NCBI GenBank assembly: GCA_037305845.1
Contig: CP147778.1
Coordinates: 1,888,001-1,952,000, forward strand
DNA length: 64,000 nucleotides
Reading direction: 5' to 3'
Source of the DNA: Candidatus Freyarchaeum deiterrae
GTDB lineage: Archaea > Asgardarchaeota > Jordiarchaeia > Jordiarchaeales > Jordiarchaeaceae
Position numbers and translations under genes: made by a program. Positions 74 to 33,994 of the stretch are shown piece by piece (positions within the stretch are counted from its first letter, which is position 1; the number at the start of each line of letters is the position of its first letter). The notes below the pieces were generated by a model. The model was not told where the DNA came from, searched no databases, and saw only the letters and a program-made list of their open reading frames with translations.

Positions 74-267
74 GCAGAGATATCCCAGTCTGGTCAATGT
101 ATACGACTAAAGGAGTAGGACTGAGGTTACTCGGGTTCGAACCACTCGAGAATCAGAGCTCCTATGGCGCAGAAACTCTCTAGCCTTCTAGGGGTTTACG
201 TAGGCCTTCGGGAGTTCAATCAGTAGCAGAGTTCCTGTTGCTGGAATATATCTCCCTCTCTGCACCA
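74..267 (+). tRNA. tRNA-Leu(GAG) with four introns (98-110, 127-158, ~173-203, 220-249); CCA encoded
   Basis: Spliced 88-nt product GCAGAGATATCCCAGTCTGGTCAA/AGGAGTAGGACTGAGG/CTCCTATGGCGCAG/GCCTTCGGGAGTTCAA/ATCTCCCTCTCTGCACCA. Acceptor GCAGAGA:TCTCTGC, anticodon stem TAGGA:TCCTA, variable arm GGC:GCC, T stem GGGAG:CTCCC. BHB-type junctions; intron 3 is relaxed and its boundary ambiguous. Confidence 0.93.
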
Positions 268-26692: not shown

Positions 26693-28072
26693 ATGCCAAA
26701 GAGTAGACGAATAGGAGTAGATTACATCTCGACTCCCTTAGCTGATGTTCCCACAGTGGATGCTCTAGAAGATGTTGTGAACAGTATTAACAGCTTGAAG
26801 GATGAATTGGACTCTATTAAGGGGAACACCCCAGGTTTGAGTGGGGAACTCATAGAAAATGTTAAACAAAGCATTAGTGCCCTTACCCAAAGAATCAGTT
26901 CACTCGAAGGGGAAGGAAAAGAATCCTCCGGGAAACTGGATTCAATTAGTAGCGCACTTGCTGCATCCATCCTTCTAACACAAAGAGCTCAGCGTAAAGA
27001 AGAACCCGACTTTCAGGTTGTAATAAGGAAACCTGAAGAATTGGTGTTTACCTTTGACCATCTAGGAAACTATGACGATATAAAAACGCAGTTAGAAAAT
27101 TATGCTTCTTTGCTGAGAAAGATTCAAGATCTTAAATCCCAGGGAGCGAAACCGAATGGTAAATTACTCATACAAGGCAGGTCGGGAACTGGAAAAACCA
27201 CGCTGGTTTACGCTCTTGCTAAAGAATCTAAAGTCCCAATAATTGATTTTCAAAAGAGCTTAGCATCTGGATCACCGAATGATCTTATTCCCGGTATCCA
27301 TGCAATTTTCAAATTTATTCGTGAAAACCCAGATAATAAACCGCTCATTCTTTTTATTGATAATTTTGATGTTCTAACACAGAGCAGAGATTTATCCCAA
27401 CCTTCTACCCTTTCTGCCATGTTAGATGAACTGGATGCTACTAATTTATGCGACCACTCGGTACTGGTTATAGCAGCCACTAGTAGGCCTGACCTATTAG
27501 ACACCGCGGTCTGGACTAGATTCGACGATATAATTCGCGTTCCTCTCCCTGATAATAGGGCGAGAACAGAAATTCTACACGTACTACTATCCAGCCTTTT
27601 GTATGAGAAGAACATTGACTTTCCACAAATTTCCGAAGCCACAGAAAACTTTTCTGGAGCTGATCTTGAAAATCTCATTTTTCGTGCAGTGGTTTCACTT
27701 GAGAAGGGACGTAAAAAAGTATTGACAACGGATATTCTTCTAGAAATCGCTCATTCCATGAGAACAGAAATACTACAGAGAATAAGTGAAAAACCCAAAT
27801 TCCAAAAAAAGGACTTGCAAAGAGAAGAGAATTTTCAACAATATCTAGTTCAAGATATAATTACTAATGATAAGCAATACGAAAAACTGCTAACCGCTCT
27901 TACAAAACTCAAAGGCGGGGATCCTTTATCAAGCGATGAGGTAGCTATTGTGAAAAATTTTGAATTTTTAACCTCAAATCCCGAGAAAGGTATTGCTGTT
28001 TTAAAGGAGAAGCGAGATAGGCTCCAGAAGGTTCAGGGAACAATGCAGAAGATGCGGGGTGCAAGAACTTGA
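26693..28072 (+). CDS. AAA+ ATPase with N-terminal coiled coil and degenerate Walker B
   Basis: GRSGTGKT, LFIDNFD, AATSRPDLLDTA..RFD, FSGADL. Stop overlaps the smc start (TTGA). Confidence 0.85.
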   Translation: MPKSRRIGVDYISTPLADVPTVDALEDVVNSINSLKDELDSIKGNTPGLSGELIENVKQSISALTQRISSLEGEGKESSGKLDSISSALAASILLTQRAQRKEEPDFQVVIRKPEELVFTFDHLGNYDDIKTQLENYASLLRKIQDLKSQGAKPNGKLLIQGRSGTGKTTLVYALAKESKVPIIDFQKSLASGSPNDLIPGIHAIFKFIRENPDNKPLILFIDNFDVLTQSRDLSQPSTLSAMLDELDATNLCDHSVLVIAATSRPDLLDTAVWTRFDDIIRVPLPDNRARTEILHVLLSSLLYEKNIDFPQISEATENFSGADLENLIFRAVVSLEKGRKKVLTTDILLEIAHSMRTEILQRISEKPKFQKKDLQREENFQQYLVQDIITNDKQYEKLLTALTKLKGGDPLSSDEVAIVKNFEFLTSNPEKGIAVLKEKRDRLQKVQGTMQKMRGART

Positions 28073-30576
28073 TAACTGAAGTAAAACTGAATAACTTTAT
28101 GTCCTACGCCAGCACTTCAGTACCTCTTTCCCCTAATTTTAATGTGATATTGGGCAGAAATGGAGCAGGAAAAACCACTATCATATCCGCGATCAAAATT
28201 GCTCTAGGCTCCTTAGCAAGAGAAAGACATAGGCTGCTGGACCAATATATACGTCATGGACAGAAGGTTGCCAGAATATCTATCGCAATAGAAAACAAAA
28301 ATAGCGATGGTGAACGAATATTCCCAGATTTGGAGGACAATAAAGTTGAAATTACACGTATCCTTCGTAAGGGTAAGCAATCACTCTTCAGATTAAACGA
28401 CAAACCCATTCAATTACATAACTTAAAGTCATTACTCTATAATGCTGGAATAAATCCTGACAATCCACTAGTAACCATTCCTCAAGGTCAAGTAAACGAC
28501 CTAATCAAAGCAAAACCAAACGAAAGAGCGCACTTCATGATAGAGGCATTAGGGTTGGGTTCAGCTCTAAACAGAATCGAAGAAAGTAAAGAAAAACTTG
28601 AGGAGAATAAGGTTAATCTCAAGGGTTTGAGCACCAAATTGGTGGACGCCAGAAAGGAACTCAAGCTCCGAAAGAATAGAAAAGAAAAATACTTGGAAAA
28701 AATCGAACTGGAGAAAACAAAGATTAAATTAGAAGCCATGTACGTTTTCTCCCAAAAATTTCAGAAAGATAGAGAGCTTTCCGATGCGGTTGAAAAGTTT
28801 GAGAAATTAAATATTGAAACTCATGATCTCACTTTGTCTCTTGAAAAAAATGAAAATGAATATCCTTCTATTGCTAAAAATATTTCAGAGCTTGACTTAA
28901 TGGAGGAAAATTCATCAAGTGAGAGGGAGGAAATCTACAGAAAAAAATTACAACTTTCCGAGGAAAAATTAAGATTACAGCCCGACGTAAATGTCTTAAA
29001 AGATGATTACAAAACCTCAACGTCGAAAACATATTCTAACCTCACCAAAGTGAAGCGGATAATACAATCACTCGACATTAAAGGCGAAATAATCGGACCT
29101 ATAGCCGAACAATTGAAAATCAAAGATTCAAGATACAACTTGGCAATAGAATCCGCTCTCGGAAGAAGAGTTATGGAAGGCTTTGTTACCACTAACCGTC
29201 AGGATTGCATTCTCCTACACGATAAACTAATTTCAAAGGGAATTAGATCCCGCATTTATTGCATAACGGATGAGTACCAAAAACCATCCATAAAGAAACC
29301 CGTTTTTCAAGGCTCGGGCATAATCGACTGGGCTGCAAATATGGTAACGGTTCCTGAAGTACTACGCCCAATAGTCGAGGAAACTCTTTCAAGATATCTC
29401 ATAGTAGATAATCTAGAAAACGGAATGGTTCACGCTAAAATGTACAAAATACCCGTGGTAACCCTCAATGGCACGAGAATCACCTATTCCTCAGCAGGAT
29501 ACTTCGACATCGACATCCCCCCGCAGTTTTCCATTATCGAATCCATTAAGCGCTATACCCCTGAAACAGAAGGAAACCGAGCACAAGGGGAGTTGGAAAA
29601 ATCAACAAAAAAATTAAAGGAACTGACTGAGAAAATACAAGAATTAGAACAGAGAGAGAAGGAAATCATTAAAAACCGCTTAGATTTAAAACACGAAAGA
29701 GATTCCCTAACCGACAAGCGTGAATCTCTAACCAAAAAGATCACGGAGGCGAAGGTTCGCCTTAAAACCCTGAACGAAAATTTGCAATTCTACCGAAGCC
29801 TTTCAAATTCGCTGCGTGAGGAAGTAAAAGAGCTAGAACCCAAAATCGAATTAATAGATCCGACACTTCGCCCCTCGGAAGAAGAAATTTTGCCTTTACC
29901 CAAACTAAATCAGAAAATTACACGAATTGAAGCAAAATTAGAGGTGCTTACAGATTACTCGGAGGAGGATCTGAAATCCTTCGAGGAGTATGAGAAGATA
30001 GTAAAAGGCATAGAAGAGCAAAGAAAAAAATTGGGAGAGGAACAGGAGATTCTACTTGATACTCTAAACAAGGAGCAATCAAAACTTTTCGAAGAGCTTC
30101 AGACCCTAATGATCAAATTCAATGAAAACTTCGAAAAACTTCTTGGTGAAGTAGGCGGAAAGGGATTCGTAGAACTGAAACAAGAGAATGAACAGACGAA
30201 CCTTTATCTCTTCTCCAGCTTTAGAGAAGATAAACCCTCTTCAGTTGATATGGGGGAACACTCCGGTGGGGAGAAAAACGTGACCACGATGGCCTTCTTA
30301 CTAGCTCTTCAGAGAGTTCATCCCTCACCATTTTACCTTTTTGACGAATTCTCAATTCATTTTGATCCTGCAAATAAAGAGGCGGTATCCAAGATGATCA
30401 GATCCTGCTCCACCCGTTCCCAGTACATTGTTGTTACTCCCCTCCGATTAGGTATAGCAGAACAAGCAGACCACGTGATAGGAGTTTTTCGAGATGTTGA
30501 AGGAAAATCCAGAATAGAGGTCCTGCGAAAACAAGACTTTGAAAAAGAGTTGGAACTTCATGAAGAAAACTTCTGA
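28069..30576 (+). CDS. smc: SMC-family ATPase, SMC5/6-related, short arms (835 aa)
   Basis: NFMSY, GRNGAGKT, PQG Q-loop, hinge IIGPIA...YNLAIESALG, HSGGE signature, LLALQ...PFYLFDEF..HFDP. Confidence 0.9.
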   Translation: MITEVKLNNFMSYASTSVPLSPNFNVILGRNGAGKTTIISAIKIALGSLARERHRLLDQYIRHGQKVARISIAIENKNSDGERIFPDLEDNKVEITRILRKGKQSLFRLNDKPIQLHNLKSLLYNAGINPDNPLVTIPQGQVNDLIKAKPNERAHFMIEALGLGSALNRIEESKEKLEENKVNLKGLSTKLVDARKELKLRKNRKEKYLEKIELEKTKIKLEAMYVFSQKFQKDRELSDAVEKFEKLNIETHDLTLSLEKNENEYPSIAKNISELDLMEENSSSEREEIYRKKLQLSEEKLRLQPDVNVLKDDYKTSTSKTYSNLTKVKRIIQSLDIKGEIIGPIAEQLKIKDSRYNLAIESALGRRVMEGFVTTNRQDCILLHDKLISKGIRSRIYCITDEYQKPSIKKPVFQGSGIIDWAANMVTVPEVLRPIVEETLSRYLIVDNLENGMVHAKMYKIPVVTLNGTRITYSSAGYFDIDIPPQFSIIESIKRYTPETEGNRAQGELEKSTKKLKELTEKIQELEQREKEIIKNRLDLKHERDSLTDKRESLTKKITEAKVRLKTLNENLQFYRSLSNSLREEVKELEPKIELIDPTLRPSEEEILPLPKLNQKITRIEAKLEVLTDYSEEDLKSFEEYEKIVKGIEEQRKKLGEEQEILLDTLNKEQSKLFEELQTLMIKFNENFEKLLGEVGGKGFVELKQENEQTNLYLFSSFREDKPSSVDMGEHSGGEKNVTTMAFLLALQRVHPSPFYLFDEFSIHFDPANKEAVSKMIRSCSTRSQYIVVTPLRLGIAEQADHVIGVFRDVEGKSRIEVLRKQDFEKELELHEENF

Positions 30577-31195
30577 AATCATTAAAGAGTGTATGCAGGC
30601 GCTAAGAGGCGACACCAATCCCTTCAATATCCCTATTTACGAATATGCGGTCGATCTTCAAGAAAATCTTTCCCAAGTGAATTTAAATAACATAACAGAA
30701 CACTCTGAGGCATTGCATAACTTAGTCATGGTTCATGAAAAAAAGATTAGCGAAGCATACAGACTACTATCCCCCGATTTTCCAACCAATAAAAACCTCA
30801 AAGATAAGTTCCAAAAACTCGACATAAACTCTCTCTCAAACCTCATTAACCTGCATCCTATAGTAAAATTAAACATCATTACTACGGCTGGACTGCTTTA
30901 CTCACTTGCCTTTCTACAGGGACGTGAATACGCTCCCTTAGTTTTTCCACAAGAGGAAAAGGTTGAGGTGAAAGCAGACGTATCAAACTTTTATGATGAA
31001 CCACCTTTTATGAATATTGTGAAAAATTTCCTAAACACCCTGCAAAATTCAAACAAAACTGAAATGTTCAAGATTATTCGCGGCAATACCTGGGAAGAAA
31101 CCGTTCGAAAATTTATGGCCTTCACCTTCCTCCTCGACGGAAAAAAAATTAAGATTATATCCGAAGGGGACAAAAAATTCATTGAGGCGATTTAA
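30560..31195 (+). CDS. Kleisin (ScpA/Nse4-like) candidate
   Basis: NPFNIPI N-terminal motif, C-terminal winged-helix VRKFMAFTFLL..KKI. Overlaps the smc end. Confidence 0.6.
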   Translation: MKKTSEIIKECMQALRGDTNPFNIPIYEYAVDLQENLSQVNLNNITEHSEALHNLVMVHEKKISEAYRLLSPDFPTNKNLKDKFQKLDINSLSNLINLHPIVKLNIITTAGLLYSLAFLQGREYAPLVFPQEEKVEVKADVSNFYDEPPFMNIVKNFLNTLQNSNKTEMFKIIRGNTWEETVRKFMAFTFLLDGKKIKIISEGDKKFIEAI

Positions 31196-31196
31196 C

Positions 31197-31700
31197 ATGT
31201 CAACGGAACTCCAATTACTATCCCTACTACTAATTCTAACCCATGGAAAAAAGCCAGGAATCACCTCAGAAGAACTACGAGCAATCTTCCTAACCGAAGA
31301 GGAAGACGAATCCAACCTGCACAACCTGATGAATACACTACAGGATAAACTAAACGAAATAGGTCTACAATTAAAATACGTTCCAACAGAGAAAAGATGG
31401 ATAATAACAGTAAACGATTTAGGCTCCACCCTAGTACCCAGCTTTCTAATCGACAGATCCGTAACAGCCACCCTAGCAGTAATCCTCTCTTTAATTCTAG
31501 AAAAAGGCGCCCCCATAGAAAAGGAAGAACTAAAATTTCTTAAAGAGAAAATGAGTGAAGAACAACTCCAAAAAAACCTCAAAACACTAGAAGAAAATGG
31601 TTACATAGGAATTGAAAAAAACATAATAACACTGAAAAACCGTATAATATACGAAGTAGATTTAGACGAGTTCAGGAAAAAAATATCAGAAATAAAATAA
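31197..31700 (+). CDS. Kite (ScpB/Nse1/3-like) tandem winged-helix candidate
   Basis: Two winged-helix-like halves (GITSEEL...LQDKLNEIGLQL; ATLAVIL...LKTLEENGYI). Follows the kleisin gene. Confidence 0.6.
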   Translation: MSTELQLLSLLLILTHGKKPGITSEELRAIFLTEEEDESNLHNLMNTLQDKLNEIGLQLKYVPTEKRWIITVNDLGSTLVPSFLIDRSVTATLAVILSLILEKGAPIEKEELKFLKEKMSEEQLQKNLKTLEENGYIGIEKNIITLKNRIIYEVDLDEFRKKISEIK

Positions 31701-32678: not shown

Positions 32679-33314
32679 TTGGATAGATTAGACAAAAACA
32701 CGCAAGCAAACAAAAAAAACGAGGATGAGTTAGTGGAAACCACAGAAGAAACTCCAACTCCGAGAAAAAAAAGAGCGGAACTAATACCCGGAAACAGAGT
32801 AATCGTATGGAACCCAGAAGAAGGTTCCCAACTCTACGCCGAAAAATTCTACGGGCAGCCCCTAGGCATAAGAAAACCAAAATCTCCCCAATTCACACGC
32901 CCACTTGAACTATCCCTACAGGAAGCTCTATACCTACTTGAAAAAGAAAAAATCGAACTCACAGATGCCGCAGATGGCCACGCAGTAACCAGAGACGAAC
33001 TGGAAAAAAGGGCAGAACAAAACTACATAGACTTCAAAACAAAATATACCGTATATAGAGACCTTCGAGAAAGAGGAAAAATAGTCAGACCAGGACTCAA
33101 ATTCGGAGCAGACTTCTCAATCTACGAACACGGACCGGGAATAGACCACGCCCCACTTATAGTGTCAGTAGTACCCCAAGGCACCCAACTCAGCGCAATA
33201 GAAACAGTAAGAGCAGGACGACTCGCAACAAGCGTCAGAAAAAAATTCGTAGTTGCAACAGTAGGACCGACAGGAGAACCAAGATACTACATGTTCGCAT
33301 GGCATAAACCCTAA
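32679..33314 (+). CDS. endA: tRNA-splicing endonuclease catalytic subunit with crenarchaea-type specificity loop
   Basis: LSLQEALYL, VYRDLRERG.IVRPGLKFGADF..Y, GPGIDHA, RLATSVRKK (Y/H/K triad). FYGQPLGIRKPK loop. Confidence 0.95.
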   Translation: MDRLDKNTQANKKNEDELVETTEETPTPRKKRAELIPGNRVIVWNPEEGSQLYAEKFYGQPLGIRKPKSPQFTRPLELSLQEALYLLEKEKIELTDAADGHAVTRDELEKRAEQNYIDFKTKYTVYRDLRERGKIVRPGLKFGADFSIYEHGPGIDHAPLIVSVVPQGTQLSAIETVRAGRLATSVRKKFVVATVGPTGEPRYYMFAWHKP

Positions 33315-33543
33315 ACAAATACATAATTAACTGATAACGAAAATTTTAAAATGTTTTTAAATTAAGCCAGCCTGATACATACTCAAAACCAGAACTTTTT
33401 AAACACCAAAAGCCCACAAGAGGCATTCAAGCAAAGCAGTCCTGAACTATTTTTTTCCGAAATATTTCTCCACTCTTTTATCCCAAAAATATCAAATAAC
33501 CTAAATCACTTTTTATCATAATTGATATAATAACCGAATTCTC

Positions 33544-33558
33544 CGAAAAAATTTTATA
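33544..33558 (+). promoter_or_regulatory. BRE/TATA promoter of tRNA-His
   Basis: CGAAAAAA followed by TTTTATA about 37 nt upstream of the tRNA. Confidence 0.55.
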
Positions 33559-33593: not shown

Positions 33594-33790
33594 GGCCCAA
33601 GTGGGGTAGACACAGTGTGCAATCACACTCTGCCCATTGGTTATCCTAGGGGACTGTGGTTATCTTGAAGCTACTGCTCAACGATAATAGTCATCCCTTG
33701 ACCCGGGCTCGTTAGCCGCTTTGGCTTCGTTTGGGAATTCAATTTGAGGATGATGCTTCGGCAGTTCTCATGAAACTCCCGGCTTGGGCC
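33594..33790 (+). tRNA. tRNA-His(GUG) with four introns (~33610-33637, 33660-33692, 33708-33737, 33744-33776); G-1 encoded, CCA not encoded
   Basis: Spliced product G-GCCCAAGTGGGGTAG/TGGTTATCCTAGGGGACTGTGG/ATCCCTTGACCCGGG/TTCAAT/TCCCGGCTTGGGCC. Acceptor GCCCAAG:CTTGGGC, G-1:C73, anticodon stem GGGGA:TCCCT, T stem CCGGG:CCCGG. BHB-type junctions; intron 1 is relaxed. Confidence 0.93.
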
Positions 33791-33994
33791 CTCAATTTCT
33801 TTTTGGTTAGGCGTTCAGTTTGTTTTTATTGGTTAATTACGGGGGCATTTTAGCTGTAGTTTTTATTGTGAATTTGTTAGGAGAAGAGGTTTTGATGGGT
33901 AAATTTTTGACTGCAGAGATAAAAGGATATTTATAGCGAATTTGTTCATGTTTTATTCAATTTGATTAAACTCAAAGGCGTTTGAGAGGTTTGA

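Follow-up and report, generated by a model that had tools for sequence, protein, structure and literature searches.

A tRNA-His(GUG) gene interrupted by four introns lies next to endA in the Asgard archaeon Candidatus Freyarchaeum deiterrae

Anatomy of the tRNA-His locus

We report that the window analysed here, a stretch of 64,000 nucleotides from the Candidatus Freyarchaeum deiterrae genome, contains at 33594-33790 (+) a tRNA-His gene in five exons. Removal of 33610-33637, 33660-33692, 33708-33737 and 33744-33776 leaves a 73-nt product with a full cloverleaf, which ARAGORN calls tRNA-His(gtg), the identity proposed in an earlier sequence-only reading. In the raw, unspliced window ARAGORN calls no tRNA and no Rfam match is obtained, and an RF00005 search over the whole genome also passes over the locus; relaxed ARAGORN settings gave 664 calls, mostly spurious, and these were discarded.

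All features of the gene are on the plus strand and intron positions are given in Sprinzl numbering. Exon 1 (33594-33609, 16 nt) runs from G-1 to G15 and is followed by intron 1 at 15/16 (33610-33637, 28 nt). Exon 2 (33638-33659, 22 nt) covers positions 16 to 37, with the anticodon GTG at 33656-33658, and ends at intron 2 in the canonical 37/38 position (33660-33692, 33 nt). Exon 3 (33693-33707, 15 nt, positions 38 to 53) precedes intron 3 at 53/54 (33708-33737, 30 nt), and a T-loop micro-exon of 6 nt (exon 4, 33738-33743, positions 54 to 59) separates the latter from intron 4 at 59/60 (33744-33776, 33 nt). Finally, exon 5 (33777-33790, 14 nt) extends from position 60 to C73; CCA is not encoded.

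Each intron has a bulge-helix-bulge (BHB) type boundary with a fully paired central helix (4/4), i.e. GGGT:GCCC, CTGT:ATAG, CCCG:TGGG and TTCA:TGAA for introns 1 to 4, such a helix being expected at 2.2% of random boundaries, and in all four both 3-nt bulges are predicted to be cut between their second and third bases. In this genome a directly stacked flanking helix is present for introns 2, 3 and 4, and none is in register for intron 1. Specifically, intron 2 is flanked by an exon helix of 7 bp and an intron helix of 4 bp (strict hBHBh'), and intron 1 lacks a directly stacked flanking helix (relaxed). Intron 3 (bulges GG^C/AA^T; hBH) has an outer helix that borrows T-loop bases 55-58, which pair with 43-46. 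For intron 4 (bulges AT^T/AC^T) the entire 5' half of the motif is provided by exon 4, and the motif class is HBh' in the full precursor and hBHBh' after removal of intron 3. The exon lengths, helices, the bulges of introns 3 and 4 and the classification of introns 1 and 2 had all been read from the letters beforehand; the exon set is exact to the base and the remainder stands as first read, including the intron numbering, which was rechecked.

The His identity pair had likewise been noted as genome-encoded, and G-1 (33594) and C73 (33790) are invariant in the six genomes compared below. In its acceptor stem and at positions 8-11 the gene does not differ from the tRNA-Asp(GTC) gene of the same genome (C1:1426998-1427129), and the two are therefore told apart by the anticodon and by G-1:C73 versus G73.

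Upstream of the gene, a BRE plus TATA-like element (33542-33558, +) comprises 17 consecutive columns that are invariant in six genomes and ends 35 nt 5' of G-1; judged from this pattern it is the probable promoter of the tRNA gene itself. A sigma-70 promoter scan returned nothing, and such a scan does not cover archaeal promoters. The 3' end is followed by a CTCAAT trailer and a T-rich tract (33791-33804, +). The trailer is invariant in the six genomes and nearly invariant in three Atabeya-type His genes as well, and the T-rich tract is a probable terminator. Farther upstream, at 26693-31700 (+), a PhoU-like gene and endA are preceded by overlapping genes that encode an AAA ATPase, an SMC-like protein of 835 aa and two small products with no Pfam match.

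Blind recovery and copy number

Both strands of the genome were searched with a script of our own that tolerates introns and takes pairing into account in its second stage, using a profile trained on 22 other tRNAs of the same genome, with His left out, and the reversed genome served as null. This search returned exactly the exon set given above and the same four introns (15/16, 37/38, 53/54 and 59/60). The locus scored 51.8 against a null maximum of 38.5, and the next GTG candidate scored 14.8; with the anticodon weighted to GTG the locus reached 63.5, compared with 37.6 for the best rival and 37.5 for the null. The score of 51.8 is below that of most tRNAs of the genome, because four intron penalties apply and His was absent from the training set.

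The sequence-only reading had argued from the usual single copy of tRNA-His and had named a second gene as the point to check. Genome-wide, on both strands and with a scope of genes that are neither split nor permuted, no second His gene scored above the null, and the His anticodon-arm pattern matches once in the genome, which is one contig and 100% complete by markers. The locus is thus the only histidine tRNA gene found in the Freyarchaeum genome, and it is real.

Further tRNA genes in the same genome

In their study of these lineages, Valentin-Alvarado et al. (2024) reported introns in 92-95% of the tRNA genes (PMC11291895), and their Supplementary Data 4 tabulates four-intron Arg-TCT, Ile2-CAT and Leu-GAG genes of the same genome; the published coordinates splice to clean tRNAs in the genome analysed here. 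Our search found about nine further tRNA genes that are missing from or mislabelled in that table, so the intron burden of the lineage is probably still underestimated. Absent from it are Phe(GAA) (C1:1547648-1547839, +; four introns), Ala(GGC) (C1:1547141-1547323, +; four introns at 33/34, 37/38, 53/54 and 59/60), Ser(GCT) (C1:1690305-1690133, -; four introns), Pro(TGG) (C1:1501840-1501693, -; three introns), Glu(TTC) (C1:1790195-1790049, -; three introns), Ser(CGA) (C1:1647848-1648026, +; three introns), Leu(CAG) (C1:1631535-1631717, +; about four introns, boundaries approximate) and a probable initiator Met (C1:about 1729300-1729443, +; boundaries approximate). Cys(GCA) (C1:1326639-1326818, +; four introns) was published as Ser(AGA) and Glu(CTC) (C1:1545739-1545584, -; three introns) as Met(CAT). 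ARAGORN accepts the spliced forms of the four-intron Phe(GAA), Ala(GGC), Cys(GCA) and Ser(GCT) genes. Moreover, Pro(GGG) (C1:1798836-1799050, +) is 215 nt long, of which insertions make up about 140 nt, and may hold four or five introns.

The pair of introns at 53/54 and 59/60 with a 6-nt exon between them occurs in Phe(GAA) and Ala(GGC), and the 6-nt exon is thus not unique to His. In Ala(GGC), the exon between the 33/34 and 37/38 introns is only 4 nt (the anticodon plus base 37), and by our reading of the sequence the central helix of the 37/38 intron would form only after removal of the 33/34 intron, which would make it a stronger case for obligatory order than His.

Partial copies of other tRNA genes were also seen. 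The published four-intron Leu(GAG) corresponds to positions 74-264 (+) of the window and has a near-copy 800 bp downstream (about 903-1089, +), in which the introns are kept and a matching 5' acceptor strand is lacking. Ser(TGA) (C1:1618383-1618249, -) has a 5'-truncated copy 20 kb away (about 1598200-1598110, -), a pattern typical of the attachment sites of an integrated element.

Conservation within the genus and in other Asgard families

The locus is present in all five other genomes of the genus, at 75-80% identity, and in each the four introns occupy the same positions and splice to a tRNA-His according to ARAGORN. For all 24 introns of the six genomes, which are close kin, a 4/4 helix is in register with a cut after the second bulge base. 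Pairing is kept in 126/126 cloverleaf cells and 96/96 central-helix cells, and in only 24-54% when the register is slid. Invariant columns amount to 60/73 in the exons, 11/16 in the intron strands of the central helices and 47/108 among the other intron bases. The acceptor stem shows one swap of G-C for A-T among the six genomes; six central-helix pairs vary on one side without breaking and none on both sides, which speaks for preservation and falls short of proven covariation. That the gene is retained with all four introns in six genomes argues for function, as the sequence-only reading had suspected.

The spliced product is identical at 53-61 of 72 positions to seven His genes of other Asgard families, which carry 1-3 introns. 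At the junctions inferred here these genes are mostly uninterrupted (15/16 in 6/7, 37/38 in 6/7, 53/54 in 7/7 and 59/60 in 4/7), and such empty sites fix the intron boundaries independently of the BHB motif. Two sequence patterns found no His gene in the sister family; the two matches obtained there were rejected as they are not tRNAs. The entry published as "His, possible pseudo" at 366350 of an Atabeya-1-like genome (positions 251-444 of the extracted piece, -) parses as Val(GAC), and the real His gene lies near 464350 (G021:C1, about 464250-464450) with introns at 13/14, 37/38 and 59/60.

Splicing enzymes and proposed maturation

The gene endA, which encodes the catalytic (alpha) subunit of the tRNA splicing endonuclease (32679-33314, +; 211 aa; Pfam PF02778 and PF01974), ends 279 bp upstream of the His gene. 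The best PDB match of the protein is 3p1z_B, the Aeropyrum pernix EndA (E 8e-43), and residues Y149, H157 and K188 together with the loop lysine K66 align with A. pernix Y125, H133, K164 and K44. A loop lysine of this kind confers broad specificity, with cleavage of relaxed motifs, and the L1 loop has been reported for Asgard archaea (PMC5829648). On the basis of the triad and the loop, we predict that the Freyarchaeum EndA is a broad-specificity enzyme. A second EndA paralogue (C1:1733162), without the His and without the loop, fits the structural subunit that an (alpha-beta)2 enzyme would have. The genome encodes RtcB, HisRS and the CCA-adding enzyme; Thg1 was looked for in it and not found, and hence the encoded G-1 matters.

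The gap between endA and the His gene is 158-279 bp in five genomes of the genus; in the sixth the two genes are on contig pieces with the break between them. At other Asgard loci no tRNA above threshold was present within about 1.5 kb of endA, so the adjacency looks to be a genus-level feature. Co-regulation is not claimed; the tRNA gene has a promoter-like element of its own.

Taken together, we regard it as very likely that Freyarchaeum obtains its tRNA-His(GUG) from this locus, a functional gene present in single copy, with EndA and RtcB as the predicted maturation enzymes. By analogy with established archaeal tRNA processing, the most likely route is four rounds of splicing followed by end-processing. 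Transcription from the gene's own BRE/TATA promoter would give a precursor of about 210 nt, in which (alpha-beta)2 EndA would cut each intron after the second base of both 3-nt bulges flanking the 4-bp helix, and RtcB would join the exons, giving four cut-and-join rounds. RNase P would have to leave the encoded G-1 in place, since Thg1 was not found; the 3' trailer would be taken off, CCA added and the product presumably charged with histidine. In folding models at 37°C, forming the motif of intron 1 costs 3 to 8.6 kcal/mol relative to the ensemble, and this motif, the weakest of the four, would depend on an enzyme of relaxed specificity.

Order of intron removal and alternative readings

Of the two T-arm introns, intron 3 would probably be the first to leave, as the T-stem completes the strict motif of intron 4 only in a precursor that has already lost intron 3; we consider this a likely preference and not a proven requirement. 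A stricter version holds that, because of the 6-nt exon, intron 4 must wait for the removal of intron 3, so that the T-arm acts as a processing checkpoint. In its favour, the outer helix of intron 3 (43-46 with 55-58) and the central helix of intron 4 (54-57) compete for exon 4, and a 5-bp exon helix becomes available to intron 4 only once intron 3 is gone. Folding of the full precursor makes the intron 4 motif cheaper after removal of intron 3 in four of the six genomes (here from 2.9 to 0.6 kcal/mol), and ordered removal is known for a three-intron tRNA of Cyanidioschyzon merolae (PMC3728597). However, the trend is reversed in the other two genomes, the central helices of introns 3 and 4 do not overlap and can coexist, and even before any intron has been removed intron 4 can form an intron helix of 7 bp (HBh'). 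Two relatives, moreover, keep just 2 or 3 pairs of the outer helix of intron 3, and EndA carries the loop that suits it to relaxed motifs. The idea that the motifs of introns 3 and 4 strictly exclude each other was rejected, since the folding and helix evidence is only partly in its favour, and obligatory order in His appears unlikely to us. A still broader and somewhat less probable proposal is that the 6-nt T-loop exon is a switch forcing intron 3 before intron 4 also in Phe(GAA) and Ala(GGC), with several core tRNAs made by obligatory ordered splicing that depends on the neighbouring EndA.

It is very improbable that the gene has decayed or become a pseudogene and that the cell's tRNA-His comes from a different gene, be it split, permuted or more fragmented. 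Such a reading could draw on the below-average score, on the absence of the locus from the published table and on split and permuted genes being outside the scope of the search. Yet the exons, the promoter and the four central helices have been kept over six genomes that are 75-80% identical at the locus, the mature sequence is close to other Asgard His tRNAs, and the complete single-contig genome offers no other candidate.

Equally remote is another division of the T-arm, with introns at 56/57 and a longer one at 59/60 that yield a different T-loop: the search favours it in four relatives, but it is impossible in the F. deiterrae genome and in one relative (G002), needs a helix in which three of the pairs are G-U and would disrupt an intron 4 of conserved length (33 nt), and it was rejected as the 53/54 plus 59/60 parse works in all six genomes.

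Comparison with known multi-intron tRNAs

The preferred reading, a functional tRNA-His gene with introns at 15/16, 37/38, 53/54 and 59/60, can be set beside several known systems. Multi-intron tRNAs of Thermoproteales were reportedly described by Sugahara in 2007 and 2008. The multi-intron tRNAs of Thermoproteales and C. merolae have BHB introns at D-loop, 37/38 and T-loop positions, as in the His gene. In C. merolae there are at most three introns per gene, and stepwise removal has been shown (Soma 2013, PMC3728597); Pyrobaculum calidifontis averages 1.54 introns per gene (10.64898/2026.10.13.758758). With regard to the enzyme, the A. pernix (alpha-beta)2 EndA with its crenarchaea-specific (L1) loop (PDB 3P1Z, 3AJV) has the triad and the loop lysine in common with the Freyarchaeum EndA.

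Closer relatives are the multi-intron tRNAs of Freyarchaeia and Atabeyarchaeia, which likewise have short non-canonical introns (PMC11291895); the published table holds 38 Freyarchaeia rows and no His gene among them, so that the locus reported here is absent from it. A census of hidden tRNA introns in Asgard archaea by Goswami, Ghosh and Sinha (bioRxiv 10.64898/2026.10.13.758758) covers the same families, with BHB boundaries and a two-subunit EndA, and gives an average of 2.2 insertions per gene and up to five. A record intron count is thereby rejected for the His gene, four-intron tRNAs being tabulated for the same genome. The census takes only genes detected by tRNAscan-SE, and genes disrupted beyond recognition are invisible to it (10.64898/2026.10.13.758758); the His locus is probably a gene of this kind. 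According to the same preprint, splicing in an Asgard cell has yet to be demonstrated for any insertion that it newly identifies, and a biochemical test of Asgard tRNA splicing is still lacking.

The novelty lies in a His gene that closes a gap in the annotation; its intron count and its mechanism are both already known. With it, a complete Asgard genome regains the histidine tRNA that its annotation lacked, and the locus illustrates in detail the blind spot of the census, namely genes too interrupted for annotators to see. Finally, with four motif classes in 197 bases and the endonuclease gene next door, the locus provides a compact substrate for a biochemical test of tRNA splicing in Asgard archaea.
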